Counted from the first letter of the stretch, positions 7,916 to 63,288 are shown. The stretch is 64,000 nucleotides of DNA from Candidatus Eiseniibacteriota bacterium (GCA_026388185.1 JAPLKG010000014.1:276319-340318), one strand, 5' to 3'. The notes: a model not told the origin generated them from the letters alone. Translations and numbers: made by a program.

Positions 7916-8956
7916 CTACTTTTTTTCTGCCGGCCGCTCTGCCGCCAGTTCCGAAAGTATCTTCTCGTATCTCGGGTCAGACCTCACGTTGTTGAGGTCT
8001 GAGTCCGTGCGAGCCAAAGAACCCAATTTGGGGCTGAGTCTCAAAGCTATTTCCAGTTCCTTGAGGCTATTGTCAGCGTCACCGGCCAGCGACAAGAAGC
8101 AGGCGAGGTCGTAGTGCGCGTCGCCGTAGTCTGGTCTATATTCTACTGCTTTCCTGGCTGCTTCCACTGCTTCCTTGTACTTGCCTTGACCGTAAAGAGC
8201 GCTAGCTTCGTTCAGTCTTGACATGGCATGTTGAATCTTGAGAAGCCTGCCCAGTTCCTTAATCGGTTCGGAGTTATCGTCTACTCTCAGGTCAATATAG
8301 CGGTCGTTGAATCCTGCATATCCGCCGCTATCTCTGACCACAAAGAGCGCGGCAGATTGCTGACCCCTTGAGTCTCCACCGGCGGACTGTCCGGCTTCGA
8401 GCGCGGCCAGGAGTCTGTCGGCCAGCTCACCTTTCGCTTTCTCGAATGCCTCGCCCATTGCCGCCACAACCTGCTCGCTGACAAGTATGTTTCCCTGCGC
8501 CGAGTAGTGCGTACCGGTTTTCCCGCCGGCCCAGGGATTGCAGCCCTTTCCGGTGTACGTGGCCGCGTTTCCCTCTGCGTCCACAATACCAACCTGACGC
8601 CTGTCTCTTCCTTCGTCCGCGGACGTGAGTGCTTCAATGACTTCGGCCGGAGTTTTTCCGCTTGCCAGGAGCTCAAGGCCTTTCGGACCGTAAGTGGTGT
8701 TACCAAACGCCTGCGTGGCGATTGCACCGACACCGGCCTTGGCCCACGGCACAACGGAGCCGACCGCGAAAAACTTGGACTCTACCGCCACGCCCAGGTC
8801 CTTCGTCTCCGGGTCGTAGGCTACGATGGAAAACGTAGCCACGGGTACCTGATGAAAGGGAGGCGCAGGCAGAATGGCCGGCGCCATCGCAGGAGCCAGA
8901 ACGGCCACAATTGCAGAGACCAAGACCAAGAGTGTGAAAAGTGAACAGCGTGACAT
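7916..8956 (-). CDS. Secreted DUF1028 (Ntn-hydrolase-like) protein with C-terminal TPR repeats
   Basis: ATFSIVAYDPETKDLGVAVESKFFAVGSVVPWAKAGVGAIATQA is the DUF1028 signature. AGGAGG RBS sits 7 nt before ATG at 8956 (MSRCSLFTLLVLV signal peptide). TPR-like C-terminus. Confidence 0.7.
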   Translation of the reverse strand: MSRCSLFTLLVLVSAIVAVLAPAMAPAILPAPPFHQVPVATFSIVAYDPETKDLGVAVESKFFAVGSVVPWAKAGVGAIATQAFGNTTYGPKGLELLASGKTPAEVIEALTSADEGRDRRQVGIVDAEGNAATYTGKGCNPWAGGKTGTHYSAQGNILVSEQVVAAMGEAFEKAKGELADRLLAALEAGQSAGGDSRGQQSAALFVVRDSGGYAGFNDRYIDLRVDDNSEPIKELGRLLKIQHAMSRLNEASALYGQGKYKEAVEAARKAVEYRPDYGDAHYDLACFLSLAGDADNSLKELEIALRLSPKLGSLARTDSDLNNVRSDPRYEKILSELAAERPAEKK

Positions 8957-9116
8957 TTTGCCTCCCTCCTCGAACGGGGCCATGAATCGACGGTGGCGGC
9001 GAGTCTGTCTGGAACCTGCCGAAAAAGTTAACAAACAGCGGGAGCCGGGTCAACATGCTTTTGCCGGTCGGAGCGAAAGTCGCTGCGTCTCTGCGCGTGT
9101 ACTCAGGCATGCATCT

Positions 9117-11066
9117 TCAGTTGCGGTAGCGTTCCTGTGTGGGGAGGAAGGCGGCTTTGGTGACCACCTTGGAGAGCATTCTGGCGTGTGTTTCCTCGAG
9201 TCCTGCAATCTCTCTCTCGAGTTGTCTTGCCGACAACTTTTTCTTTCTATTCTGAATCGAGCGCAGAAGTTCGCGGAATTCCTTACCCGTTAGGGCCTCT
9301 CTCTTCACAAGAATGTCCTTCAATTTGAACAATTCATAATAGTGCGACGTGAGCACGTCGAGCGCTCGCTTTTCTGCTTCGAGCACCATGAAGTCGATCT
9401 GTCGTCTCAGAGCTTCTCTGTCGTGTTCTTTGTCGGGCAGCACGTAGCCGTTTCCGAACCCTATCTCCGTTACTGCGTAGTCCAGGAGATCCCTGAGCAC
9501 CTGAAGATCGCTCGAGGCGCCGTCGGTCTTTTCGTTCTCGGGGTACATCAGTTCCTCCGCAACCCGGCCGCCGATGAGCGTGGCGATTCCGTCGAGGAGC
9601 ATGTCCTTGCTCATCAGGTATCTGCCCTCTCTTTGATAGGGCCTCGTGTAACCGAGTTGCTCCCCCTTGCCCACGATTGATATCTTGGCCACCGGGCTTG
9701 CGTTGGGCAGAAACTGGGAGACCAACGCGTGACCCAGCTCGTGGACCGCGACTATTTCTTTTTCCTTGTCCGTCAACCTGTGAGTGCTTCCGGCTCCTTC
9801 AACGATTCTGTCGAACGCCTCCCGCATCTTGTCTCCGTCGATTCCGCAGCGACAGCGTGCGGCGACCGCGAGTATTGCCGCGTCGTTGAGAAGATTCTCT
9901 ATTTTTTCGGGCGTGAACCCCGCGGTGTCGCGCGCCCATCTGTCCAGATCAAGGGTTCTCTCGATGAGTTTTTTTCTTGGGTTTTGAGCGAGTACCTTTC
10001 TGCTCGTGGTAGTGTAGATTCGGAAAATTTCGAGTCTTGCCTTGAAATCCGGTTTGTCAATGGGCAAGACTCTGCCGAATCTCTCGTGTCTCAGAAGCGA
10101 GGGGTCCGGTGCCTCCGGGTTACTCGTGGCTCCTATGATCAGCACGTCGTCGGCGCCGGCGAAACCTTCGAACAGCGCGCGGAGGGCAAAGGTGGCGTAA
10201 TCCTGCCCCGCAGCAGGAGCGGGCAGTACTTCGTCCACCAAGATGACGAGAGGAGAGTTTTCCTTGAGCGCCGCAATCGCCTGTGCCATGCCTTCCGAGC
10301 CGAGCTCGCCGTACATTGCCACGAGATCCGTTGCATCTATCTTGAGCATGGGCACACCGGCTTCGCCGGCCATTGCGATTGCAAGGGAGGGCTTGCCGGC
10401 ACCGTGGGGTCCCTTGAGTAGCACACCCTTCGGCAGTCTCGCCCCGATTTCTCTGAATCTGGAAGGAGTCCTGAAGAATGCGACGAATCTCATCAGCTCC
10501 CTCTTTGCGTCAATGTTTCCTCCGACGTCCTTGAACCTGAGAGAGGGCCTGAACTTCTTGAGCGTGAACTTGGGGCTTGAGGTCTTTTGCTCGGACACCA
10601 CCCCGTCCCCGAGGGTTCTTTCCTGCCGCAGATCAGACTCGGGAACGTCGACTGAAACCGTCGTGGCTATTTCGTACGCTCTTTTCATGAATTCCGAGAA
10701 GAATTTCTTGGAGAAACTCGAGGCCATTTTCTTCATTTCTGGTTCGGCATGGAGCCCGAACGTACCCTTCTTCTGTCCGATCTGAAGCCGCGAGTACATT
10801 CTGCCCAGATACTCAGCCAGCGCCTTGACGGGATTGTGAAGCTGACTTAGGTCCATCATGTTTTGTGCGATCGATTCACCGATGAGTTTTTCCAGTTGCC
10901 GGCGCTGGATCTGCGGGAGGTCTTTCTGCCCCGGCTTGCTCTGAACAACAAGGGAAGCAAGAGACTTCGCCATTTTCCTGGCCTCATCTCTTGTCAGGCC
11001 GGTGCGTGACGCGCCGCTCTGTTTCTTGGTGGCGGATTTATTGAGAGCTCTCTTGTTGGCGTTCAT
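9117..11066 (-). CDS. Soluble FtsH-like protein with degenerate AAA module and intact HEXXH peptidase M41 motif (pseudo-ATPase protease paralog)
   Basis: Aligns by eye with the canonical FtsH at 45580-47733. Walker A GPHGAGKPS (Thr to Pro), Walker B VDEV, arginine-finger region RHERFGR in place of RPGRFDR, sensor-1 ATSNPE. Peptidase part keeps HELGHAL. No TM segments. Basic 200-aa N-domain. Confidence 0.7.
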   Translation of the reverse strand: MNANKRALNKSATKKQSGASRTGLTRDEARKMAKSLASLVVQSKPGQKDLPQIQRRQLEKLIGESIAQNMMDLSQLHNPVKALAEYLGRMYSRLQIGQKKGTFGLHAEPEMKKMASSFSKKFFSEFMKRAYEIATTVSVDVPESDLRQERTLGDGVVSEQKTSSPKFTLKKFRPSLRFKDVGGNIDAKRELMRFVAFFRTPSRFREIGARLPKGVLLKGPHGAGKPSLAIAMAGEAGVPMLKIDATDLVAMYGELGSEGMAQAIAALKENSPLVILVDEVLPAPAAGQDYATFALRALFEGFAGADDVLIIGATSNPEAPDPSLLRHERFGRVLPIDKPDFKARLEIFRIYTTTSRKVLAQNPRKKLIERTLDLDRWARDTAGFTPEKIENLLNDAAILAVAARCRCGIDGDKMREAFDRIVEGAGSTHRLTDKEKEIVAVHELGHALVSQFLPNASPVAKISIVGKGEQLGYTRPYQREGRYLMSKDMLLDGIATLIGGRVAEELMYPENEKTDGASSDLQVLRDLLDYAVTEIGFGNGYVLPDKEHDREALRRQIDFMVLEAEKRALDVLTSHYYELFKLKDILVKREALTGKEFRELLRSIQNRKKKLSARQLEREIAGLEETHARMLSKVVTKAAFLPTQERYRN

Positions 11067-11218
11067 TTCTATGCCGTCTCCTCCAACGCGCTCATGAAGC
11101 TTCCCGCGCTCAAATCGTTCGACCGGCTCGAGACCCTTGGTTCGCCCAACTATACTATCGGCATTTTCCGGGACGGAGTTCGCCGGTTACTTCTTCCTGC
11201 CGGTTGCTCTTTCACCAG

Positions 11219-11446
11219 CTATTTTTTCCTGACGTAGGCCTTGTAAACCTCCCCGTCCTCCTCGACGCCCAGAAACTCGTTCTTCGTGGCCCTGCACCAG
11301 GCCGGCATGTCTTCCTTTATTCCCTCGTCAGTTGATATTACTTCCAGTACTTGGCCCGGCTGCATTTCCTTGATTTTCTCGGCGGTTCTCACAATGGGCA
11401 TCGGACAGAGAAGACCGAACGCATCGAGTGTAAAGTCAGCCTTCAT
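11219..11446 (-). CDS. tusA: TusA-like sulfurtransferase (CPxP motif LLCPMP)
   Basis: 75 aa, motif GLLCPMPIV with conserved catalytic Cys. Confidence 0.8.
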   Translation of the reverse strand: MKADFTLDAFGLLCPMPIVRTAEKIKEMQPGQVLEVISTDEGIKEDMPAWCRATKNEFLGVEEDGEVYKAYVRKK

Positions 11447-11522
11447 GGTGCCTCCAACAATGCGAGGGAGCGACGTCGAAGCCGTCGTTCCCCTGCGGTC
11501 CCGGTAGAACGAACGTAGTGTC

Positions 11523-11993
11523 TCAAACGAATAGGTTGATTCCTGATTCAGACGCCTCCGAAAGGTAAGTTGCGACGCCGGCCACGCGATCCACTTGTTC
11601 GACTAACTGGTCCTTGCTGATTCCCATCAGCTCCATCGTGGTTGTGCACGCGATCAGTTTGACACCGCTTTGCTCGGCGAGCGAAATCATCTCCTGAACG
11701 CCAGGCATTCTATATTGCTTCATTAACTTTTTCATCATGAACGGGCCTATTCCGAGCATGTTCAGTTTGGAAAGAGGGAGCTTGCGGGCGTCTGGAGGAC
11801 TCATCATGGAGAGCATCCTTCTGATAAGACCTTTGGCCCTCGACGGGGTGTTCGGACGTTTAAGGATATGGATACCCCAGAACGTGAAGAACATCGAGAC
11901 TTCCATGCCCATTGATCCCGCTCCGATGGCGATATTGAAAGCAGCCATCGCTTTGTCCATGTCGCCGCTGAAAACGACAAGTGTGACTTTCAT
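11523..11993 (-). CDS. DsrE/DsrF-like sulfur relay family protein
   Basis: Probable start MKVTLVVFSGDMDKA with AGGAGG RBS. Fold-family motifs. Sits between iscS and tusA. Confidence 0.6.
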   Translation of the reverse strand: MKVTLVVFSGDMDKAMAAFNIAIGAGSMGMEVSMFFTFWGIHILKRPNTPSRAKGLIRRMLSMMSPPDARKLPLSKLNMLGIGPFMMKKLMKQYRMPGVQEMISLAEQSGVKLIACTTTMELMGISKDQLVEQVDRVAGVATYLSEASESGINLFV

Positions 11994-12048
11994 CGAACCG
12001 CCTCCTTGAGCCTGAACTTGCGAACCGTCTCGTTGGCCTACCTGCCCG

Positions 12049-13242
12049 TCACGCCCCTGGGTCATTGCCCCTTTTCTTCTTCATGTCGCTGTAAAGCGGA
12101 CTCATCTCACGAAGCCTCTCGACTATTGGAGGGAAGACCTTCAAGAAATGCTCTACGTCCTCCGCGGTGTTTTCCCTGCCGAGCGAGAAGAGGAGAGAGC
12201 CCTGAGCCACGTCGGGCGGTACTCCCATGGCCGTCAAGACGTGAGACGCCTTCAATGCCTTCGAGCTACACGTGGAACCGCTCGACGCGGCAATTCCCTC
12301 CATGTTGAGAAATAGAACCATGGATTCGCCCTCTATGTACTGGGCGCAGATGCTCAAATGCCCGGGTAAGCGCCTTTCGGGGTGACCGTTCACGCGGACG
12401 AACTGGATGCGTTCTTTGATTCCAGCCTCCATCGTGTCGCGTAGTTTCTTGCAACGTTCCGCCGCCGGCCCCATTTCCTGCTCCGCCACTTCCACTGCCT
12501 TTCCCAGCCCGACAATCGCAGGCACGTTCTCGGTGCCGGCTCTCTTGCCGTCCTCCTGAACCCCGCCGTCAATGAACGGCGCAATCCTTACACCTTGCCT
12601 CACGTAAAGGGCCCCGACCCCCTTGGGTCCGTAACACTGGTGGCCCGCAAGGCTGAGAAGGTCTACACCCAGTTTGTTGACATTGACGGGAATGTTGCCG
12701 AAGCTTGCCACGGCGTCGGTGTGAAAAACGATGCCCCTCTCCCTTGCGATCTTTGAGATTTCTTCCGTGGGTTGTATGGTGCCCACTTCGTGGTTGGCGT
12801 GCATGACGGATATGAGGACGGTGGACGGCATGACGGCTCTTGCGACATCGTCGGGATTCACCAGCCCGTGGCCGTCTGTGGGTACGTAAGTAACCTGGAA
12901 GCCTTGTTTCTCGAGTTTTTTACAGGAGTGCAGAACCGCGTGGTGCTCGATGCTGCTTGTGACTATGTGGTTTCCCTTCTTTTGAGCCGCCGCTACCAGC
13001 CCCTTGATTGCAAAGTTGTCGGCTTCCGTCCCCGTTGACGTAAAGACAATTTCGTCCGGCCGTGCGCCGATGAAATCGGCCACACGCTTTCTGGCAGCCT
13101 CCACGGCCGCTCGCGCCTCTTGCCCGAAATCGTGCACACTGGAAGGGTTCCCGAACGTTTCACCCAAGAATGGAAGCATCGCCTCAACCACTCGAGGGTC
13201 GGTCTTTGTCGTTGCCGCGTGATCAAAATAGATCCGTTTCAT
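12049..13242 (-). CDS. iscS: Cysteine desulfurase (IscS/NifS family, PLP-dependent)
   Basis: MKRIYFDHAATT.., SSIEHHAV, SLAGHQCYGPKGVGALYV, SSGSTCSS active-site Cys region. Confidence 0.85.
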   Translation of the reverse strand: MKRIYFDHAATTKTDPRVVEAMLPFLGETFGNPSSVHDFGQEARAAVEAARKRVADFIGARPDEIVFTSTGTEADNFAIKGLVAAAQKKGNHIVTSSIEHHAVLHSCKKLEKQGFQVTYVPTDGHGLVNPDDVARAVMPSTVLISVMHANHEVGTIQPTEEISKIARERGIVFHTDAVASFGNIPVNVNKLGVDLLSLAGHQCYGPKGVGALYVRQGVRIAPFIDGGVQEDGKRAGTENVPAIVGLGKAVEVAEQEMGPAAERCKKLRDTMEAGIKERIQFVRVNGHPERRLPGHLSICAQYIEGESMVLFLNMEGIAASSGSTCSSKALKASHVLTAMGVPPDVAQGSLLFSLGRENTAEDVEHFLKVFPPIVERLREMSPLYSDMKKKRGNDPGA

Positions 13243-13465
13243 CTACTCTCACCTCCGCCTGGTCTTCTTGTGATTCTTACGGAGTCTACCAAAAACCGTG
13301 GACGTGTCAAGCGAGGGCTTGCGATCCAGGCGCCGGAAGACGCCCGCGCCGGGGGAAAATGTCGGCGAGGCGTCAACAAAGTTCTTGACCGTTCCAGAAT
13401 TAGTGTTATGTTTTTGAGAAACGTATGCACACCGGCAACGGCGGCTCGCAATTGTGGGGTCAGCT

Positions 13466-13891
13466 ATGAAGAAACCGTCTCATCTCATCAGGTTTGGCGT
13501 CTCGCTCGAAAGGGAGCTTCTCGCGCGGCTCGACTCGTTCGTCAGAGACAATGAGTTTCCGACGAGATCGGAGGCAATACGTGCCCTGATAAGAGAGAGG
13601 CTCGTCAGAAAAGAGTGGTTGTGCGGTAGGCAGGTGGTGGGTGCGATAGTGCTTGTGTATGACCACGGAAGACGCGAGATTCTCAACAAGATTACCCACG
13701 TTCAGCATGAGTTTCACGACAATGTGATCTCGACGCAGCACGTGCATCTTGATCGCGACAACTGCCTTGAGGTAGTCGTCGTGAAGGGCAGACCCAGAGA
13801 CGTGGACAGTCTCTACAAGGGGCTACAGTCGATTAAAGGTATCAAGCACATCAGTCTGAATACGGGGACCACGGGTCGCGGAATTCCATGA
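13466..13891 (+). CDS. nikR: Nickel-responsive regulator NikR (ribbon-helix-helix plus C-terminal metal-binding domain)
   Basis: LIRFGVSLERELLARLD..EFPTRSEAIRALIRE (RHH) and HVHLDRDNCLEVVVVKG (nickel-binding ACT-like domain). Directly precedes cbiMNQO. Confidence 0.8.
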   Translation: MKKPSHLIRFGVSLERELLARLDSFVRDNEFPTRSEAIRALIRERLVRKEWLCGRQVVGAIVLVYDHGRREILNKITHVQHEFHDNVISTQHVHLDRDNCLEVVVVKGRPRDVDSLYKGLQSIKGIKHISLNTGTTGRGIP

Positions 13892-13986
13892 TTGTGCAGT
13901 GTAGGTCTCGCGCGAGCGGGGACGGCGGCTGATAGATAGCCGGTCATGCGCCGGCGAGGACGGTGGAATTCCCGGAGGACTTCTTC

Positions 13987-14631
13987 GTGCACATTCCAGA
14001 CGGTTTTCTTGAAGCGAAGGTGTGGGTGCCTGCTTGGGTGCTGGCGGCCGGGGCAATGGGACTCTGCTCCAGAAAGGCCGGCCGGGCTCTTGGCGACAAA
14101 AAGATTCCTGTCATGGGAGTCACGGCGGCGTTCATCTTTGCCGCGCAGATGCTCAATTTTCCGATAGCCGGGGGTACTTCCGGTCATCTTCTTGGCGGCG
14201 CAATAGCCGCAACACTATTAGGACCGTACGCAGGATTCATGGTCATCACGGTCGTGCTCACGGTTCAATGCCTCGTATTTCAGGATGGAGGTCTCACCAC
14301 GCTCGGCGCGAACATCATGAACATGGCATTTGTAGGTACCACGTGCGTCTACCCGATCATAAGGGTGAGTAGCTCCGTGATGCGCAGGAGAGCGGGAGTT
14401 GTTCTCGGGGCTTCGCTGGCAGCGTGGGTCTCTGTCGTGGCAGCTTCCTTTGGCTGCTCTCTTGAGCTTGCGCTGTCTGGAAGGGCTCCGATCGCCGTGG
14501 TCGTGCCTGCCATGGTGGGTGTCCATTCCGTGATAGGGATCGGAGAGGCCCTGATAACGGGATTCTTTGTCGGATTCCTGCTCAAGACAAGGCCCGATCT
14601 TGTGATGAGCGGGACAACGGCAAATCGCTAG
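13987..14631 (+). CDS. cbiM: ECF transporter substrate-specific component CbiM/NikM (probable GTG start giving MHIPDG)
   Basis: VHIPDGFL N-terminus and 7-TM profile. GGAGG lies 10 nt upstream of GTG 13987. Confidence 0.8.
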   Translation: MHIPDGFLEAKVWVPAWVLAAGAMGLCSRKAGRALGDKKIPVMGVTAAFIFAAQMLNFPIAGGTSGHLLGGAIAATLLGPYAGFMVITVVLTVQCLVFQDGGLTTLGANIMNMAFVGTTCVYPIIRVSSSVMRRRAGVVLGASLAAWVSVVAASFGCSLELALSGRAPIAVVVPAMVGVHSVIGIGEALITGFFVGFLLKTRPDLVMSGTTANR

Positions 14632-14651
14632 CGCGCTTCAGGGGGAGAGCG

Positions 14652-14954
14652 ATGTCGGAACGAAAGGTTCTAGTTTTGTCGTTCGTCGTTTCGCTGGTCC
14701 TTGCCGGTCTTGTGTCTCCTTACGCTTCACGGTTGCCCGACGGACTGGAGAGGATTGCCGGTGACCTGGGATTCATCGACAGAGAGCGCGCGCTCCTTCG
14801 CTCGCCCGCTCCCGATTACTCTTGGCAAGGTTTACTTCTTGGAAAACTACCCGCGTCTCTCGCCGGAATAGCGGGTGCAGCACTCGTGTTTGCGGCCGCC
14901 GCTCTACTCGGAAAGGTCCTGACCGCGGCGGAGTTGAAACACGAGACGCGTTGA
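14652..14954 (+). CDS. PDGLE-domain small membrane protein (CbiN/NikL-like accessory component)
   Basis: 100 aa, two TM segments, PDGLER motif. Confidence 0.6.
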   Translation: MSERKVLVLSFVVSLVLAGLVSPYASRLPDGLERIAGDLGFIDRERALLRSPAPDYSWQGLLLGKLPASLAGIAGAALVFAAAALLGKVLTAAELKHETR

Positions 14955-14984
14955 TCGCTAACAACGATTGTCAGCAAGAGACGT

Positions 14985-15761
14985 ATGGATCTTTTCGCGA
15001 TCGACAGATACTGCGGCTTGACGAGTCCGATCCACAGGCTGAATCCAGTCGTTACCCTGGTCTCATTCCTGACCTTTGTGGTTGTCGTAGTTCTTGTACC
15101 GGTGCGCGAATTCGCCCCGTTACTGGCGGCCCTGTTCAGCCTGTCGTGTATCGCGCTTGTTTCGAAAGTTCCTCTTCGCTTCATCCTCAGGAGGAGTCTT
15201 GCGATAGTTCCCTTTGCGATTGCAATCGGTGCATTCAATCTGCTCGGGAGGGGTGTGGACCTCATGATTCATCACTCCGCCTCGGGTTCTTCTGCCCTTG
15301 ATTCCGCCGGGGTTCCCGCGTTCCTGAACGTGGTGCTGAAGTCGTTTGTCTGCGTTCTGGGCATGACTATTCTCGTCAGCACGACGGGCAGTGCCAATCT
15401 ACTGAATGCCATGCGCAAGATAGGTGTCCCGGAAGGATTGACGGCGGGAACCTGTTTTCTCTCCAGGTACGCTTACGTTGTTGCGGACGAGCTATTCAGA
15501 ATGAAGAGATCGAGAGACTCTCGACGGGCGGGCAGCTTACCGTGGATTGCGGAATTGCGTTTCGTGGGCTCGCTGGTCGGCGTGCTGTTCATTCGGTCTT
15601 ACGAGCGAGCCGAGCGTGTCCACGTGGCCATGTGTTCACGCGGGTTCGATGGAACCGCCGTCGTTTCGACTCAATTCAGGACTTCGAGAAGAGACGTCTT
15701 GTTTCCTCTGTTTCTTCTAGGGCCCCTTCTACTGATACTTCTGATTTCGAATCTGATCTGA
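14985..15761 (+). CDS. cbiQ: ECF transporter transmembrane (T) component CbiQ
   Basis: 258-aa multi-TM protein in the canonical position between CbiM/N and CbiO. Confidence 0.7.
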   Translation: MDLFAIDRYCGLTSPIHRLNPVVTLVSFLTFVVVVVLVPVREFAPLLAALFSLSCIALVSKVPLRFILRRSLAIVPFAIAIGAFNLLGRGVDLMIHHSASGSSALDSAGVPAFLNVVLKSFVCVLGMTILVSTTGSANLLNAMRKIGVPEGLTAGTCFLSRYAYVVADELFRMKRSRDSRRAGSLPWIAELRFVGSLVGVLFIRSYERAERVHVAMCSRGFDGTAVVSTQFRTSRRDVLFPLFLLGPLLLILLISNLI

Positions 15762-15831
15762 CGGGCTGGTTTCGGAGTGATCACGCCGGCCACGGAGTTA
15801 GCACAAGGAATCAGCAGACGAGAGTCACATA

Positions 15832-16587
15832 ATGCGCCCCATCATACAAATATCCTCGCTCTCTTTCGCCTATCCTGACGGAACCAGCGCTCTCGACGGC
15901 GTTTCTCTTGACATATTCGAGGACGAGTGTCTGGGTCTTGTTGGGCCGAACGGCGCCGGGAAGACAACGCTCTTGCTTCACCTCAACGGCATTCTGTCTG
16001 GAAGCGGTAAAGTCACGATCGATGGTCTGGAGGTGTGTGACAAGAACTTGCGTGAAGTCAGGCAGAGAGTCGGAATTGTGTTCCAGGATCCCGACGATCA
16101 GCTTTTCAGTCCCACTGTTTTCGACGACGTGGCGTTCGGGCCGCTCACAATGAGGCTCGCCAATCCGGAGGTTCTTTCGCGCGTGAACTGGGCCTTGAAC
16201 GAAGCCGGCCTTGCCGGGCTCGAGAAGAAGGCGCCACATCATCTGAGCTTCGGCCAGAAGAAAAAGGCTTCGTTAGCTTCTGTTCTTTCCATGCGACCAA
16301 GAATCATTGCCCTCGACGAACCTACGAGCAATATGGACCCGCGCAGCAGGAGGAGGTTTCTCCAGCTCATAAAGGCGCTGAAGGCTACGAAGGTTCTCTC
16401 GACTCACGACATGGAGAGCGTGAGTGAATTGTGCAGTAGAGTCGTTGTGCTCGATTCCGGCAGGGTGGTCGCCGACGGGAACACGCAATCCGTTCTCTCG
16501 AATAGAGAACTCATGGAATCTCACGGCCTGGAAGTCCCGCGCAGCCTCTGGTGCCCGCCACGACATTCACCTGACGTGCCACACTAG
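15832..16587 (+). CDS. cbiO: ECF transporter ATPase CbiO
   Basis: Walker A GPNGAGKTT, ABC signature LSFGQKKKASLA, Walker B IALDEPTSNMD. Confidence 0.85.
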   Translation: MRPIIQISSLSFAYPDGTSALDGVSLDIFEDECLGLVGPNGAGKTTLLLHLNGILSGSGKVTIDGLEVCDKNLREVRQRVGIVFQDPDDQLFSPTVFDDVAFGPLTMRLANPEVLSRVNWALNEAGLAGLEKKAPHHLSFGQKKKASLASVLSMRPRIIALDEPTSNMDPRSRRRFLQLIKALKATKVLSTHDMESVSELCSRVVVLDSGRVVADGNTQSVLSNRELMESHGLEVPRSLWCPPRHSPDVPH

Positions 16588-44979: not shown

Positions 44980-45635
44980 TATTTCGAGGTGCGGCGCGTT
45001 CCGGCGCGCTTGTGCGGCGCCTTTTTCCTGGCTCTCGAGTCGGCTTGGCTGCCTATCAAGGAGAGAGCTTCAGCTCTTGTTCGTTCTTCAAGCATCGCGC
45101 CTCTCGCGGCGGTCGAGATCGTCTTTGCGCCGGGTTTGTGGGTGTTATTCATGGCCATGCACAAATGCTCGGCTTCGATGATAACAAGCAGCCCTCTTGG
45201 ATCGAGAGCCTTCGTCAGTTCGTCCGCAATCTCATTAGCCAGGCGTTCCTGTAATTGGAGCCTCCGGGACAGAACCTCGACGGTCTTCGTGAGACTGCTC
45301 AGTCCTGTGACGCGATTCTTACTTGGCAAGTAGGCGAGGTGTATCTTTCCGAAAAAGGGAAGCAGATGGTGCTCGCACATCGAATGAAAAGAGATGTCTC
45401 TCACCAGAATCATGCCGTCCTGATTGTCGACACGATATAGTTTGAGGCCTCCCGCAGGCTTCTGGCCGATTCCGCTGAAGATTCTTTCGTAAAGCCGGGC
45501 GACACGGCGAGGAGTATTCTTGATTCCTTTCCTCTCCGGATCCTCTCCTATCGCCTCGAGGATGGAGCGGACGGCTTTCTCAATCTTCGCGAGCCTCACC
45601 AGTCGCTGCGTCCTGTGTTTGCGCACCTCCCTCAC
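44979..45635 (-). CDS. folE: GTP cyclohydrolase I (FolE) with basic C-terminal tail. Start may be internal (overlaps ftsH 3' end).
   Basis: [54 protein letters not shown] (Cys-His zinc site). Confidence 0.85.
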
Positions 45636-47733
45636 GGGGTTCAGTCCTTTCCGTTCCAGAAGGGGATTCCGTCTGATTGATCTTGGGGATTTCTTGCTGG
45701 CCCTGCGCTGGAGTGCGTGGAGTTCGCGTCTTACTGACGGGCTCCAGCTTCTCCCCTCGGAGCACTCTGTCTATTTCCTCGCTGTCCAGAATTTCTCTTT
45801 CCAGAAGCGCGATGGCAAGGTCGTTGAGTTTTTCCCTGTTCTCAAGAAGAAGCTTCCTGGCTTTCTCGTGCGATCCTTCCACTATGGCCTTTATTTCTTC
45901 ATCTATGGAGACGGCCGTCTTCTCGCTGTAGTTCTTCTGCTGGGAAATCTCGCGCCCCAGGAAGATGAGCTCCTCTCTCTTGCCGAGAGTCACCGGACCG
46001 AGTCTCTCGCTCATGCCCCACTCGCACACCATCTTTCGTGCTATCTCGGTAGCAGTCTCGATGTCGTTTGCGGCGCCGTTGGTGATTTGATTGAGTACCA
46101 GCTCCTCCGCCGCTCGTCCTCCCATAAGCGTGGTGAGGGTCATGAGAAGGTAATCCCGCGTCCTCGTGTATCTTTCGTCGATCGGAAGCAAGTGGGTGAG
46201 CCCGAGGGCTCTTCCCCTGGGGATGATTGTAACTTTGTGAATTGGGTCCGAGCCGGGCTGTAGCCTGGCTATTAGAGTGTGGCCGGCTTCGTGGTAGGAA
46301 GTCGTGCGCTTCTCTTCGTCGCTTATGATGAGACTTCTTCTTTCCGTGCCCATCATGACCTTGTCTTTCGCCTCCTCGAAGTCCTCCATGAGGACTTTCT
46401 TTCTGTTCCTTCTTGCGGCGAGGAGAGCGGCCTCGTTGACGAGATTCGCAAGGTCTGCGCCGGCAAGCCCGGGCGTCGCTCTGGCGAGCACTTTGAGATC
46501 CACGTCTTCTGACAGCGGGATGCCTCTCGTGTGTACGCGGAAAATGCCTTCGCGACCGCGGACGTCGGGCCTGTCAATCACGATCTGTCTGTCGAAACGG
46601 CCGGGTCTCAAGAGCGCGGGATCGAGAACATCCGGCCTGTTGGTGGCAGCCAGGAGTATGACTCCTTCGTTTGAATCGAAGCCGTCCATCTCGACCAGGA
46701 GTTGATTGAGGGTCTGTTCCCGTTCGTCGTGTCCTCCTCCGAGGCCCGCGCCGCGCTGCCTCCCGACGGCGTCTATTTCATCGATGAAAATTATGCATGG
46801 GGCGTTCTTCTTCCCCTGATCGAACAGGTCTCGGACCCTCGAGGCCCCAACACCTACGAACATCTCGACGAAGTCGGAGCCACTCATGCTGTAGAATGGT
46901 ACGTTGGCTTCTCCGGCCACGGCCTTTGCGAGCAGCGTCTTCCCGGTCCCGGGAGGACCGAGAAGAAGCGCGCCTTTTGGAATTCTGCCACCGAGGCGTT
47001 GAAACTTCTTCGGTTCCTTTAGAAACTCTATTATTTCCTCGAGCTCTTGCTTTGCTTCGTCGGCCCCGGCCACGTCTCTGAACGTGACCTTGGGTCTGTC
47101 TTCGAGAATCACTTTGGCCTTGCTTCTTCCAAACTTGAGGGCGGCGCTCCCACCGGCCTGCATCTGACGCATTATGAAGAGCCAGAATGCGACTATGAGA
47201 ACGATAGGAAGCCAGGAGACGAGCATTCCAATCCAGTTCATGCCTTCCGGCTGGGACGTGATCTCGGCGCCCGGGAACTTCTTCCATATTTTGTCGGGAA
47301 GGTCGGCGTCCTCCGTGGGGAGCCATACCTTGAAGTTTTTGAACGTGAGCTTCCTGCCGCGATAGTCCGTCTCGGCCTGGGCTTTAAGTTCTCCCGTCAC
47401 TTGCTTACCGGACAATGTCAGCGACGCAATGTTGCCCGCGTTGATTTCCTTGAAGAATCTCGAATAAGAGATCTCCACATCTTTAGGTTTCGCGGAGAAA
47501 TAGAATTCAAAGAGGAGGACAGTGAGAAGAATCAGCATGATCCAGAACGCCATCGTTTTGAACGGTTTTACCGGCGACAGGGGTATGCCCCTTCGGGGGC
47601 CTCTAATTCTTCCACGAGGAGGAAGAGGAGGCTTGTCGTCTTGTTTCTGGAGCTTGTCTCCTCCGGGTCGAGATCTATCTTCGGGTGGAAGCTTTTCTTC
47701 AGGAGATTTCTTCTCGGGTTTTGTCAAATGCAT
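45580..47733 (-). CDS. ftsH: ATP-dependent zinc metalloprotease FtsH (canonical)
   Basis: Two N-terminal TM helices, [49 protein letters not shown]. Confidence 0.95.
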
Positions 47734-54411: not shown

Positions 54412-54489
54412 CCTCGCAGCGTGTCTTCTTAACGCCTGTGCGCGCTCGGGCAGAGGGAGGCGATAGTGCCGCATGACGTTTTTCCAAAT

Positions 54490-54640
54490 GGCCAGGTTTA
54501 TTTGCTAGTCGCACTTCCAAATAACACGGCTAATATCGGAAGCCAGGTACAAGTGCTGAGGGATGGGTGGGCTTGTGTCCCGGGTGAGGTAAGACACTGG
54601 GTACCGCAGGTTCGAGTCCTAGCTGGGGAGCCACAACTCT
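54490..54640. repeat. About 150-bp element, copy 1. The 5' 55 nt are nearly identical to copy 2. The 3' 90 nt are divergent and end in a tRNA-T-arm-like GGTTCGAGTCC...CTGGGGAGCCA motif.
   Basis: Direct comparison with 57450-57600. Contains hairpin GTGTC-N13-GACAC. Confidence 0.6.
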
Positions 54641-54707
54641 TCCGTATTCCGCAGCCCAAACGCCTAAACCTCAAGTACCCGTCGTTGGACCCGGCCGTAC
54701 AGCAAGT

Positions 54708-55190
54708 CTACTCTTCTAGCAGATTCCCGAATCTCAACTGTCTTTGAGGGGCTTTCGCCTTGATAAGGCTGGAGACTTTCTCAACGAACTTCTCGGCCAC
54801 CGCGATAGAATGAGTCGCTTCTTTCAGCGAACAAGGTATGCCGGGTTCATAGATGAACCTGTGACGTTTTCGCCTCATGAAATCATAATCGTTCACAAGT
54901 TTCCTAAACTCATCTCCTAAAACCGAACCCGCAAATCTCACTATTGTCAAGTGCTTGTTCTTGATTTCCGGTCTGAACCCCTCGCTGAACATCAAACCCA
55001 ATCCCATTCTCAACATGGCATTGTAAGCATAGTTGTAGGCACATTCCGGATCCTCTCGTAGGTTTCTCTTCGCAGTTCTCAGATCAGTGCGGGCGCGCTT
55101 GATCAGCTTGGCTACCGCCCTTTGGTCTACAGGACACCTCTTGATCAATCCGTCCTTTTCAAGGGGTTTCTCGGAATGTCTAGAGCTCAT
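54708..55190 (-). CDS. HEPN-domain toxin (HepT-like), copy A
   Basis: 160 aa, R-x4-H region RRKRHRF. 11-nt overlap with the upstream MNT gene. Confidence 0.7.
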   Translation of the reverse strand: MSSRHSEKPLEKDGLIKRCPVDQRAVAKLIKRARTDLRTAKRNLREDPECAYNYAYNAMLRMGLGLMFSEGFRPEIKNKHLTIVRFAGSVLGDEFRKLVNDYDFMRRKRHRFIYEPGIPCSLKEATHSIAVAEKFVEKVSSLIKAKAPQRQLRFGNLLEE

Positions 55191-55755
55191 CCTCTTTTCC
55201 CACCAACATTATCTTTGGAGCCGTCAAGACCTCTTCGATGAAACCGCTCGCGACTCTTTTCTTCGCCCGGTATTCTTGCAGAGAGTAGATCGTCGGGTTG
55301 ATTTCTCTCCGGAGTTTTTTCTCCAATCCCGCAATCTTCTCGTTCAACACGGAGATGTCGGGACGCCCGATTATCATTAGATCGATGTCGCTGGTCGCTT
55401 TTTCTCGACCCGAAGCGAATGATCCATAAATGAAGGCCAGCCTTATGTCCTTGAAAGACGATAACGTTTTTCTTACTGCCCCTTCAACACCAACAGTCTT
55501 AGAGACTATGGCCTTCAGTTCCTTGAATAGGGGATGTCCAGTATTCAGAGAGTAGTAGAGCAGGTTTCCGACTCTGTGAGTGACGAATAGGTTATCCCTC
55601 TGAAATCTTAAGAGCTCTCTTCTTATGCTGCCCGCGGAGTAACCCAGGATGCGCTCAAGTTGTCGCAGATAGTATTTCTGGGATGGATTGCTGAAGAAAA
55701 GGGACAGCAAGCCCTGTCTGATTCTTGACTTCGTTACATATAGCGCTTCCAACAT
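55180..55755 (-). CDS. Nucleotidyltransferase (MNT/MntA-like) antitoxin with N-terminal wHTH, copy A
   Basis: GSFASGREKATSDIDLMII NTase motif. N-terminal HTH. AGGAG RBS before ATG 55755. Confidence 0.7.
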   Translation of the reverse strand: MLEALYVTKSRIRQGLLSLFFSNPSQKYYLRQLERILGYSAGSIRRELLRFQRDNLFVTHRVGNLLYYSLNTGHPLFKELKAIVSKTVGVEGAVRKTLSSFKDIRLAFIYGSFASGREKATSDIDLMIIGRPDISVLNEKIAGLEKKLRREINPTIYSLQEYRAKKRVASGFIEEVLTAPKIMLVGKEDEL

Positions 55756-55770
55756 CGTTGAACTCCTTCT

Positions 55771-55788
55771 TGAGTACAATTGTACTCA
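55771..55788. promoter_or_regulatory. Perfect palindrome TGAGTACAATTGTACTCA, putative autoregulatory operator of the HTH-MNT/HEPN operon (copy A). Identical site at 62764-62781 for copy B.
   Basis: 18-nt perfect inverted repeat 16 nt upstream of the MNT start, conserved in both copies. Confidence 0.55.
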
Positions 55789-56146
55789 GTATTGGATACA
55801 GCGGCAAGTCTTATCTGAACCCAACCTTTGTACCGAAGTGGACTGTGCGACGAGCGTCTGAGGGTGGCATTCCAGATTGCACCACTGCCTGGTACTCGGA
55901 AGCTGCGGTGAGCCCTTCTGGCAATCAAGGCTGGACGACAGTTCTGGCACGATCCGGCCAGGAAGACAGTCTGAAGGTGAACCTATCCAGTCGTCACACA
56001 CTCTCGCTGGCGTTCGTTGTGCCCGCGCTTAGTGCTCCAGTCCGTGTAGACAACCCGGAAGTGAAGGGCGACTTCAAGGCTCTCTTCTAGGGTTCGAATA
56101 CTGGCACATTTGGGGAGGCACACCCTCCTGCTGTGCTGCACAATGC

Positions 56147-61374: not shown

Positions 61375-61700
61375 ATCGCTTTCGACCTCGCTTTCTGCCT
61401 GTCACAGACGAGCTCAGGGAAAACAAGAGGAAAGAGATCTTGTAAGCTAATCAATACGAGGAACTGTCTAAGGTTAGACTATCACATCTTGCCGCTTCGC
61501 GCAATCCCTTTCGATAACCCACCGAGAGCATGCAACCTGTTCTCAGTATGTGGGAAGGGAACACCTCGGGACCAGACGGCTCACATCCACTCTAATGGTT
61601 CGCAAATCGTACAACTTGAGGAGCCACAACTCTTCTGTATTCCGCAGCCCAAACGCCTCAACCTCAAGTCCCCGTCGTTGGACCCGGCCGTACAGCAAAT

Positions 61701-62183
61701 TCACTCTTCCAGCAGATTCCCGAATCTCGACTGTCTCTGAGGGGCTTTCGCTCTGATGAGGCTTGAGACTTTCTCAACGAACTCCTCGGCCACCGCGATA
61801 GAATGAGTCGCTTCTTTCAGCGAACAAGGTATGCCGGGTTCATAGATGAACCTGTGACGTTTTCGCCTCATGAAATCATAATCGTTCACAAGTTTCCTAG
61901 ACTCGTCTCCTAGAATCGAACCCGCAAATCTCACTATTGTCAAGTGCTTGTCCTTGATTTCCGGTCTAAACCCGTCGCTGAACATCAGACCCAGTCCCAT
62001 TCTCAACATGGCATTGTAAGCATAGTTGTAAGCACATTCCGGATCCTCTCGCAGGTTTCTCTTAGCAGTTCTCAGATCAGTGCGGGCGCGCTTCATTAGC
62101 TTGGCTACTGTCCTTTGGTCTACAGGACACCTCTTGATCAATCCGTCCTTTTCAAGGGGTTTCTCAGAATGTCTAGAGCTCAT
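61701..62183 (-). CDS. HEPN-domain toxin, copy B
   Basis: Near-identical to 54708-55190. Confidence 0.7.
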   Translation of the reverse strand: MSSRHSEKPLEKDGLIKRCPVDQRTVAKLMKRARTDLRTAKRNLREDPECAYNYAYNAMLRMGLGLMFSDGFRPEIKDKHLTIVRFAGSILGDESRKLVNDYDFMRRKRHRFIYEPGIPCSLKEATHSIAVAEEFVEKVSSLIRAKAPQRQSRFGNLLEE

Positions 62184-62748
62184 CCTCTTTCCCCACCAAC
62201 ATTATCTTTGGAGCGGTCAAGACCTCTTCGATGAAACCGCTCGCGACTCTTTTCTTCGCCCGGTATTCTTGCAGAGAGTAGATTGTTGGGTTGATTTCTC
62301 TCCGGAGTTTTTTCTCCAATTCCGCAATCTTCTCGTTCAACACGGAGATGTTGGGATTCCCGATTATCATCAAATCGATGTCGCTGGTCGCTTTTTCTCG
62401 ACCCGAAGCGAATGATCCATAAATGAAGGCCAGCCTTATGTTCTTGAAAGATGATAACGTTTTTCTTGCTGCCCCTTCAACACCAACAGTCTTAGAGACT
62501 ATGGCCTTCAGTTCCTTGAATAGGGGATGTCTAGTATCGAGAGAGTAGTAAAGCAGGCTTCCGACTCTGTGGGTGACGAATAAGTTATCCCTCTGAAATC
62601 TTAAGAGCTCTCTTCTTATGTTGCCCGCAGAGTAACCCAGGATGCGCTCAAGCTGTCGCAGATAGTATCTCTGGGACGGATTGCTGAAGAAAATGGACAG
62701 CAAGTCTTGTCTAATTCTTGACTTCGTTATATATAGCGTTTCTAACAT
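62173..62748 (-). CDS. HTH-MNT nucleotidyltransferase antitoxin, copy B
   Basis: Near-identical to 55180-55755. Palindromic operator at 62764-62781. Confidence 0.7.
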   Translation of the reverse strand: MLETLYITKSRIRQDLLSIFFSNPSQRYYLRQLERILGYSAGNIRRELLRFQRDNLFVTHRVGSLLYYSLDTRHPLFKELKAIVSKTVGVEGAARKTLSSFKNIRLAFIYGSFASGREKATSDIDLMIIGNPNISVLNEKIAELEKKLRREINPTIYSLQEYRAKKRVASGFIEEVLTAPKIMLVGKEDEL

Positions 62749-63288
62749 CGTCGAACTCCTTTTTGAGTACAATTGTACTCAGTATTGGATACAGCGGCAA
62801 GTCTTATCTAACCCCAGCCTTTGTACCGAAGTGGACTGTGCGACGAGCGTCCAAGGGCGGCATTCCAGATTGCACCACTGTCTGGTATTCGGAAGCCGCG
62901 GTGAGCCCTTCTGGCAATCAAGGCTGGACGACATCTGGCACGATCCGGCCAGGAAGACAGTTTGGAGGCGAGTTTATCCAAGCAGCACACACTTTCGCTG
63001 GTACTCGATCCGGTGACGCCTGATGTCCCAGTTCGCATAGACGACTCGGAAGCACGGGGCAGATTCGCGAGTCTCTTCTGCAGTTCGAATACTGGCACAT
63101 CTGGGGAGCCTGCCGCGGCGACGGGGCCTGTTGCATCCACGCTCGCTCCTGTGACTACCGCCTCGGGCCACCAAAGCAAGAGGAGCCAGCGCTTGGCCAG
63201 TCCATCGGTTGTGCTTAGTCTCTTGCCCAATCAGCAAGAGCCTCTATCTTCGCACACAAAAATACACTTGGTTTGTGCGGTATCTCTA

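Follow-up and report, generated by a model that had tools for sequence, protein, structure and literature searches.

A 64,000-nucleotide stretch of DNA from Candidatus Eiseniibacteriota bacterium (GCA_026388185.1, JAPLKG010000014.1:276319-340318), referred to here as the window, carries between positions 9117 and 13242 four co-directional genes on the minus strand, which encode a NifS-like protein, a DsrE_2 protein, TusA and a homologue of the protease FtsH. A first-pass annotation had described this region as a sulfur-relay operon, iscS-dsrE-tusA, ending in a soluble FtsH-like pseudo-ATPase/protease, and the layout of four co-directional genes with short gaps is borne out by the open reading frames (ORFs) and by Pfam and NCBIfam assignments. 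The gene furthest upstream (13242-12049) encodes a NifS/MisS-like class-V fold protein of 397 residues that matches Aminotran_5 and scores 550.2 bits on the TIGR03402 NifS model (cutoff 530.75). It is followed by the gene for a 156-residue protein of the DsrE_2 family (PF13686, 172.6 bits; 11993-11523), for which the ATG at 11993 is preferred to the mechanical ORF start at 12065, given that a ribosome-binding site (AAGGAGG) lies ahead of it and that the orthologues are 156-167 residues long. The third gene (11446-11219) encodes a TusA-family sulfur carrier of 75 residues, which scores 89.2 bits on PF01206 (cutoff 28.6) and has the CPxP cysteine in place (CPMP, within GLLCPMPIV), and the last (11066-9117) encodes a soluble FtsH-like paralogue of 649 residues, with Pfam AAA at residues 215-336 and Peptidase_M41 at residues 431-600. 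With the DsrE start set at 11993, the intergenic gaps measure approximately 55, 76 and 152 bp. Protein searches with the FtsH-like and the NifS-like sequence each gave a 100% identical match in a Candidatus Eisenbacteria (Eiseniibacteriota) MAG (metagenome-assembled genome).

The FtsH-like protein scores 286.1 bits on TIGR01241, below the equivalog cutoff of 600, and shares 28% identity with the window's own canonical membrane FtsH. The latter, which the first-pass annotation had correctly placed elsewhere at 45580-47733 (minus strand), lies between tilS and folE, has transmembrane (TM) segments and scores 859.7 bits on the same model. As had been claimed, the FtsH-like protein lacks TM helices: no TM-like segment is present, its maximal 19-residue Kyte-Doolittle mean being 1.28, where the window's canonical FtsH reaches 2.54 and a Chloroflexi FtsH 2.94, and PF06480 gives no match in it. 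Since a stop codon bounds the ORF upstream, no membrane anchor has been overlooked, and the TM-less state is shared by all 19 clusters of the family described below. An AlphaFold2 (AF2) monomer model, with a mean predicted local distance difference test score (pLDDT) of 81, has the FtsH fold, with FtsH, AFG3L2 and YME1 as its best Protein Data Bank (PDB) matches, and the C-terminal helix is conserved. The position of the FtsH TM/periplasmic region is occupied in the model by an N-terminal domain (residues ~22-140; 10647-11003, minus strand) predicted to form four helices (pLDDT 70-94). This N-domain matches no Pfam family at E<=1 and no fold in the PDB (best E 0.56), and a profile search of 1.84 billion representatives returned essentially its own cluster alone.

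Within the AAA module, Walker A (residues 219-227; 10386-10412, minus strand) reads directly as GPHGAGKPS, in which Lys225 is kept and the Mg-coordinating Thr is replaced by Pro226. In P-loop NTPases generally, the hydroxyl residue after the P-loop lysine coordinates Mg2+, and in 37 aligned canonical FtsH sequences Walker A is GPPGTGKT or a close variant. The replacement had been reported previously and stands. A weakened Walker B had also been reported and is not found: in the alignments ILVDEV (residues 275-280; 10227-10244, minus strand), within LVILVDE, leaves the hhhhDE pattern intact, and the catalytic residues D278 and E279 do not vary in any of 55 sequences. Immediately after Walker B, about 10 residues are deleted (an alignment gap of 10-11 columns), which removes the pore-2 loop region. 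Pore-1 reads M-Y-G-E-L-G (M-Y-[GNST]-E-L-G across the family) where canonical FtsH has M-F-V-G-V-G, so that an aromatic residue, Tyr252, is kept, and the sensor-1 motif ATN has become ATS. The sensor-1 Asn has a role in ATP hydrolysis. In the SRH (second region of homology), described earlier as an altered arginine-finger region, the flanks do differ, LLRHERFGR against LLRPGRFDR, but both R326 and R329 are present in the window's protein; R326 is invariant in the family and R329 is Met or Ile in 5/18 members. Relative to canonical FtsH, the lid also carries 11 inserted residues, and 18 residues are missing from the M41 domain. The zinc site is untouched, as had been stated: HELGH (residues 442-446; 9729-9743, minus strand) supplies H442, E443 and H446, the third ligand, D520, lies in GASSDL (residues 516-521), and all four are invariant across the 55 sequences by alignment. 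The earlier description of a degenerate AAA module joined to an intact M41 protease in a TM-less paralogue is thus upheld, and is strengthened by the losses in pore-1, pore-2 and sensor-1 that it had missed.

The GKPS sequence is identical in all 17 orthologues (66-86% identity), which indicates that GKP is not a sequencing error for a canonical GKT, a doubt that had been raised. A more distant member, P0019 (43% identity), has GVGKHY, with His and then Tyr after the Lys. Since 17 members have Pro at that position and P0019 has His, no hydroxyl residue directly follows the P-loop lysine anywhere in the family. Mean within-family identity is 80% for the AAA large subdomain, 84% for M41 and 61% for the N-domain. 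The ratio of non-synonymous to synonymous substitution rates (dN/dS) in four pairs is 0.04-0.05 for the AAA module and, for M41, approximately 0.02 in three pairs and 0.085 in the most divergent one, values that are rough because dS is near saturation. Judged from these low ratios and the high identity of the domains, the degenerate AAA module is maintained under strong purifying selection and is not decaying.

The family is small. Among 5.8 billion clustered proteins it comprises 19 clusters, from metagenome-assembled genomes (MAGs) of Eisenbacteria type, and beyond it the match scores fall from above 500 bits to approximately 270 bits, the level of ordinary membrane FtsH. Within the top 120 matches, family members are the only TM-less proteins, two truncated fragments aside, and the only ones with a true Walker A lacking T/S. 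A search with P0019, the most divergent member, found no further relatives, and a scan of 185,579 species genomes with strict peptide patterns returned three loci, all in Eisenbacteria MAGs. The best matches to the FtsH-like query from outside the family are P0020 and P0021 (891 residues), membrane FtsH homologues in which a single M41 domain is preceded by two AAA modules in tandem (GPPGCGKT and GPPGTGKT). Literature searches on soluble or TM-less FtsH, on pseudo-ATPase FtsH and on Eisenbacteria together with FtsH found no description of such a protein. On these comparisons, the FtsH-like protein is a previously undescribed soluble, probably non-translocating variant of FtsH, confined to an uncultured phylum.

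Comparison with bacterial FtsH (M41, TIGR01241; T. maritima, Aquifex and E. coli; PDB 3kds, 7tdo and 2ce7) indicates the same AAA and M41 fold in the same domain order, with HEXXH and its Asp ligand, the Walker A Lys, the Walker B DE and the first SRH Arg in common. The FtsH-like protein differs in having a unique helical N-domain of 140 residues instead of the TM helices and periplasmic domain, GKP for GKT, Ser for the sensor-1 Asn, Y[GNST]E for FVG in pore-1, and the pore-2 deletion. Reviews portray FtsH as membrane-anchored. The plastid FtsHi proteins (Arabidopsis FtsHi1-5; Ycf2-FtsHi motor, PDB 8xku) resemble it in being degenerate paralogues that exist beside a canonical copy, and give a comparable structural match. 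FtsHi proteins have lost HEXXH and kept the ATPase (PMC9020784, PMC8197885). The FtsH-like protein is in this respect their mirror image, with HEXXH kept and the ATPase and pore motifs degenerate, and it is soluble whereas FtsHi is membrane-bound.

The labels iscS and cysteine desulfurase given to the first gene of the cluster are misleading. Alignment to E. coli IscS and to PDB 9wep places Q202 (GHQCYGPKG; codon 12637-12639) where the lysine that forms the Schiff base with pyridoxal 5'-phosphate (PLP) should be (IscS K206, SGHKxYGPKG), and L351 where IscS has the substrate-carboxylate arginine R354. The catalytic cysteine loop is kept (SSGSTC325, corresponding to IscS C328). Across the 120 nearest homologues (60-100% identity), whose annotated sources include Chloroflexi, Schekmanbacteria and Nitrospirae, Gln is found in 103, Leu in 114 and Cys in all 120; given Gln in 103 of these, the missing lysine is not a sequencing error. 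These residues predict that the NifS-like protein has no desulfurase activity. Since it nevertheless passes the TIGR03402 cutoff, the annotation name hides the missing lysine, and it is likely that the Lys-less clade has been mis-annotated on a large scale as 'cysteine desulfurase NifS'.

The Lys-less form keeps particular neighbours. In an independent set of 80 metagenome loci, restricted to those whose downstream flank spans at least 1.3 kb, genes for DsrE_2 and TusA follow the Gln/Leu form in 6/6 cases and the Lys/Arg form in 0/35 (Fisher p=2e-7), although the loci are phylogenetically non-independent, four of them being Eisenbacteria. Downstream of the Lys/Arg form there is instead an IscU gene in 22/35 loci, and one Lys-form locus (L011) has IscU and TusA without DsrE. 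The Gln variant also stands beside DsrE and TusA in L008 and L010, and outside Eisenbacteria the cluster adds IscU/NifU_N (L008, L010, L032, L035 and L047). This suggests that the Lys-less NifS variant, which is widespread, is specifically linked to DsrE_2 and TusA. Literature on clusters of TusA, DsrE2 and a desulfurase yielded no linkage of the Lys-less form to DsrE and TusA.

Desulfurase-like proteins without the lysine have precedents. The IscS of Archaeoglobus fulgidus has Asp in place of the lysine and is inactive as a desulfurase; it serves as a ligand or scaffold, with one of its cysteines coordinating the cluster carried by IscU. IscS1 of M. acetivorans likewise lacks the lysine (PMC8918507, PMC7585200). 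NifS-like proteins of non-diazotrophs are now placed in the little-studied MIS (MisS/MisU) minimal Fe-S system (PMC13066941). The NifS-like protein shares with A. fulgidus IscS (PDB 4hvk/4eb5) the type-I desulfurase fold, the loss of the PLP lysine and the retention of the cysteine loop, and its relatives in other phyla adjoin an IscU/NifU_N gene. It differs in having Gln rather than Asp, in also losing the substrate Arg, and in its linkage to DsrE_2 and TusA, with no IscU in the Eisenbacteria cluster. The TusA-DsrE2/DsrE3 relays of sulfur oxidisers (rDsr, sHdr) likewise have TusA and a DsrE-family carrier side by side (PMC11094781), but no dsr, shdr or rhodanese genes occur here and the partner is the NifS-like protein. 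The DsrE protein is moreover a member of the broader PF13686 only, and at 67.5 bits on NF047629 is far below the DsrE2 equivalog cutoff of 210.

The coupling of the FtsH-like protein to sulfur trafficking is the weakest part of the original finding. Ten distinct Eisenbacteria-type loci, the window included, were compared. In 6/10 of these (the window, L005, L007, L018, L019 and L021) tusA lies directly upstream of the ftsH-like gene on the same strand. In L002 and L022 a spacer of ~0.9 kb separates the two, with an opposite-strand ORF called in L002, and in L003, a complete chromosome, a DinB gene and an opposite-strand gene of 660 residues stand between them. L006 has no sulfur genes within 7 kb of the ftsH-like gene. 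In L004 (7522-11247) the gene for P0019 lies between a HARE-HTH gene, which overlaps its start by 4 nt, and a double-PDZ gene, and there are no sulfur genes within 7-8 kb. The nifS-dsrE-tusA module is itself found in other phyla without an FtsH-like gene. On the downstream side, the ftsH-like gene is followed in four loci (L005 8989-9786; L006 9039-9935; L002 10489-11259; L003 10444-11250) by the gene for a generic S-adenosylmethionine (SAM) methyltransferase, which is UbiE/Methyltransf_11-like and reaches no NCBIfam cutoff. In L005 the gap to it is 14 bp, tighter than on the tusA side, and in L007 an ORF (8983-9381), cut by the contig end and given no domain call, overlaps the ftsH-like stop codon. 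A tblastn search of the window found no methyltransferase, IscU, YHS or DinB homologue.

A 16-nt element, TGCCGATAGTATAGTT (11148-11163, minus strand), lies 82 nt upstream of the ftsH-like ATG. It matches TGCCGATASTATARYT exactly, and its consensus form is TGCCGATA[GC]TATA[GA][CT]T. The element occurs once per locus, 54-82 nt before the ftsH-like start, in the window, L001/2, L003/L014, L005 and L006 (positions 7932-7947 in L002, 7932-7947 in L003, 6916-6931 in L005 and 6930-6945 in L006); in L007 only a diverged version is visible. The sequence flanking the element is not conserved, the 5' region of the ftsH-like gene has no conserved RNA fold, Rfam gave no match, and the spacer between tusA and the ftsH-like gene has no unusual RNA structure (z = +0.93). 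Given that the element is conserved whatever the upstream neighbour, it is read as a candidate promoter or operator specific to this gene, as judged from conservation; three element-bearing loci have an opposite-strand neighbour and would therefore require a promoter of their own in that spacer. A sigma-54 reading of an upstream TGGC...TGC was rejected for its spacing, which does not fit the sigma-54 consensus, and the 16-mer was likewise not taken as a NikR operator, whose consensus it does not resemble. Upstream of the nifS-like gene, a consensus scan only gives a sigma-70-like promoter match, TTGACA-16-TAGACT with a TG (13283-13310, minus strand), at 10/12 positions.

The ftsH-like gene and the sulfur genes represent conserved synteny within one lineage, and an obligatory operon is not supported; in this lineage they probably stand side by side as two units instead of forming a single operon. 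Of the operon ending in the ftsH-like gene, as described by the first-pass annotation, the adjacency and the shared strand stand, and the element of its own, the opposite-strand genes in other loci and the missing sulfur genes in L006 and L004 speak against it. The first-pass annotation had itself named an independently transcribed ftsH-like unit, unrelated to the sulfur genes, as the outcome that would count against its proposal, and the 16-nt element and the variable neighbourhoods come close to this. Given that there is no terminator-like site between tusA and the ftsH-like gene, read-through from tusA, and with it co-transcription and a functional link, is possible in the window.

Taken together, it is somewhat better than an even chance that the locus combines a soluble, non-threading FtsH variant under its own control with a sulfur module built on an inactive desulfurase. 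Soluble FtsH fragments assemble rings (PMC9020784), and by analogy the FtsH-like protein would assemble likewise, with the M41 and AAA domains building the ring. Nucleotide would still bind via Lys225 and the Walker B Asp-Glu, and ATP hydrolysis would be poor, given the loss of the Mg-coordinating hydroxyl and of the sensor-1 Asn. The loss of the pore-1 aromatic-hydrophobic-Gly motif and of the pore-2 loop would make the gripping and threading of substrates probably impossible. With HEXXH and its Asp ligand intact, the protein would act as a zinc endopeptidase on peptides, on unfolded proteins or on one particular partner, and the unique helical N-domain, which takes the place of the membrane anchor, would choose the substrate. 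In the sulfur module, sulfane sulfur would pass via TusA and DsrE to Cys325, with no PLP chemistry on cysteine, and from there would feed Fe-S or thio-cofactor assembly.

Several observations weigh against this combination. The tusA adjacency is kept in 9/10 Eisenbacteria-type loci, in 6 of them without an intervening gene, and on the minus strand no terminator-like site occurs inside the cluster, the tusA/ftsH-like spacer included. The 16-mer does not fit the sigma-70 -35/-10 geometry. The direction of sulfur delivery is speculative, and no IscU gene was found in the window or in the Eisenbacteria loci. Finally, the invariance of the P-loop Lys, the Walker B DE and R326 would equally fit a still-active ATPase with an unusual P-loop.

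The alternatives overlap in part. The protein could be a working ATP-dependent soluble unfoldase-protease that tolerates the GKPS P-loop and the shortened pore loops, for which the intact GxxGxGK, the aromatic Tyr252 in pore-1 and the strong purifying selection on the AAA module can be cited alongside the invariant residues just named. Nevertheless, the Mg-coordinating hydroxyl is lost as Pro in 17 members and as His in P0019, and the Ser that follows is not conserved, being Tyr in P0019; with the sensor-1 Asn and the pore-1 hydrophobic-Gly pair also lost and the pore-2 loop deleted, such activity appears unlikely. An arginine finger acts in trans, and the invariance of R326 and the general retention of R329 in a subunit whose cis ATPase motifs are degenerate raise the possibility of mixed hexamers with canonical FtsH. 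In such a ring the FtsH-like subunit would provide a protease site and arginine fingers and would recruit through its N-domain, and the canonical subunits would supply ATP hydrolysis and the membrane anchor, as in FtsH/FtsHi or Yta10/Yta12. The genome does code for a canonical FtsH, and heterocomplexes of the FtsH family are well known (PMC9020784). By contrast, R329 is Met/Ile in 5/18 members, identity to the window's own FtsH is 28%, ring surfaces are changed by the two deletions (10 and 18 residues) and by the 11 residues inserted in the lid, and there is no genomic linkage to ftsH; mixed hexamers, too, appear unlikely.

The remaining alternatives concern the sulfur genes. A co-transcribed soluble protease dedicated to the sulfur module, for example for turnover or quality control of the NifS-like protein, DsrE, TusA or persulfidated clients, would account for the shared strand, the gaps of 55, 76 and 152 bp, the lack of a terminator-like site and the adjacency in 9/10 loci. 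It is rather unlikely, given the opposite-strand genes or 0.9-kb spacer in L003, L002 and L022, the absence of sulfur genes near the ftsH-like gene in L006 and L004, the conserved upstream element that the gene has for itself, and the occurrence of nifS-dsrE-tusA in other phyla without an FtsH-like partner; the downstream methyltransferase in L005 (14-bp gap) and the overlapping ORF in L007 are also tighter neighbours than tusA. The most far-reaching proposal joins both halves of the locus into a nucleotide-gated, non-threading protease, the mirror of FtsHi, dedicated in Eisenbacteria to the Lys-less NifS/DsrE/TusA module, where it would for example clear damaged or over-persulfidated carriers and so link proteolysis to a cysteine-independent entry of sulfur into Fe-S and thio-cofactor synthesis. 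This is a long shot.

The preferred combination, of a soluble non-threading FtsH variant beside a sulfur module on an inactive desulfurase, bears on how both protein families are understood. Accounts of FtsH present it as a protease that is universally membrane-anchored and driven by ATP, and its known degenerate paralogues (FtsHi) have lost the protease and not the motor. A maintained paralogue with the zinc site and without the anchor or the translocation motifs would reveal the capabilities of the M41 chamber and AAA ring in the absence of threading, and would offer a system occurring in nature in which nucleotide binding, ring assembly and proteolysis can be told apart. The occurrence of a Lys-less NifS with DsrE and TusA suggests a non-cysteine supply of sulfur to Fe-S assembly in anaerobes, and this clade flags a systematic annotation error; as a side result, the Lys-less NifS possibly has wider reach than the FtsH-like protein.

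Other features of the window were recorded alongside the cluster. Directly downstream on the same strand, at 7916-9034 (minus), is a gene whose product joins a DUF1028 (Ntn-hydrolase-like) domain to TPR repeats and has an N-terminus resembling a signal peptide; this gene is also kept, further downstream, in L001/2 and L005. Divergent from the nifS-like gene, at 13454-16587 (plus), are nikR and a cbiM / small ORF / cbiQ-like / ABC-ATPase transporter. L005 also has the nikR-cbi transporter genes, and there a small YHS-domain gene lies between nikR and nifS; the same small gene is immediately upstream of nifS in L007 as in L005, and the window is without it. An anti-phage reading was rejected: PADLOC gave a generic AAA (IetA) and DndA/SspA similarity, with no defence context. 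Towards the far end of the window there is a direct repeat of ~1.5 kb (54477-56117 and 61617-63108, 74-94% identity, copies 7 kb apart), each copy of which carries a toxin-antitoxin-like pair of HEPN and nucleotidyltransferase (MNT) genes. Between the copies are an AAA_14/DUF4143 ATPase, a NosD/beta-helix protein and an ORF of 308 residues without a Pfam match, the last of which lies in a low-GC stretch (GC 0.44 at 58-60 kb).

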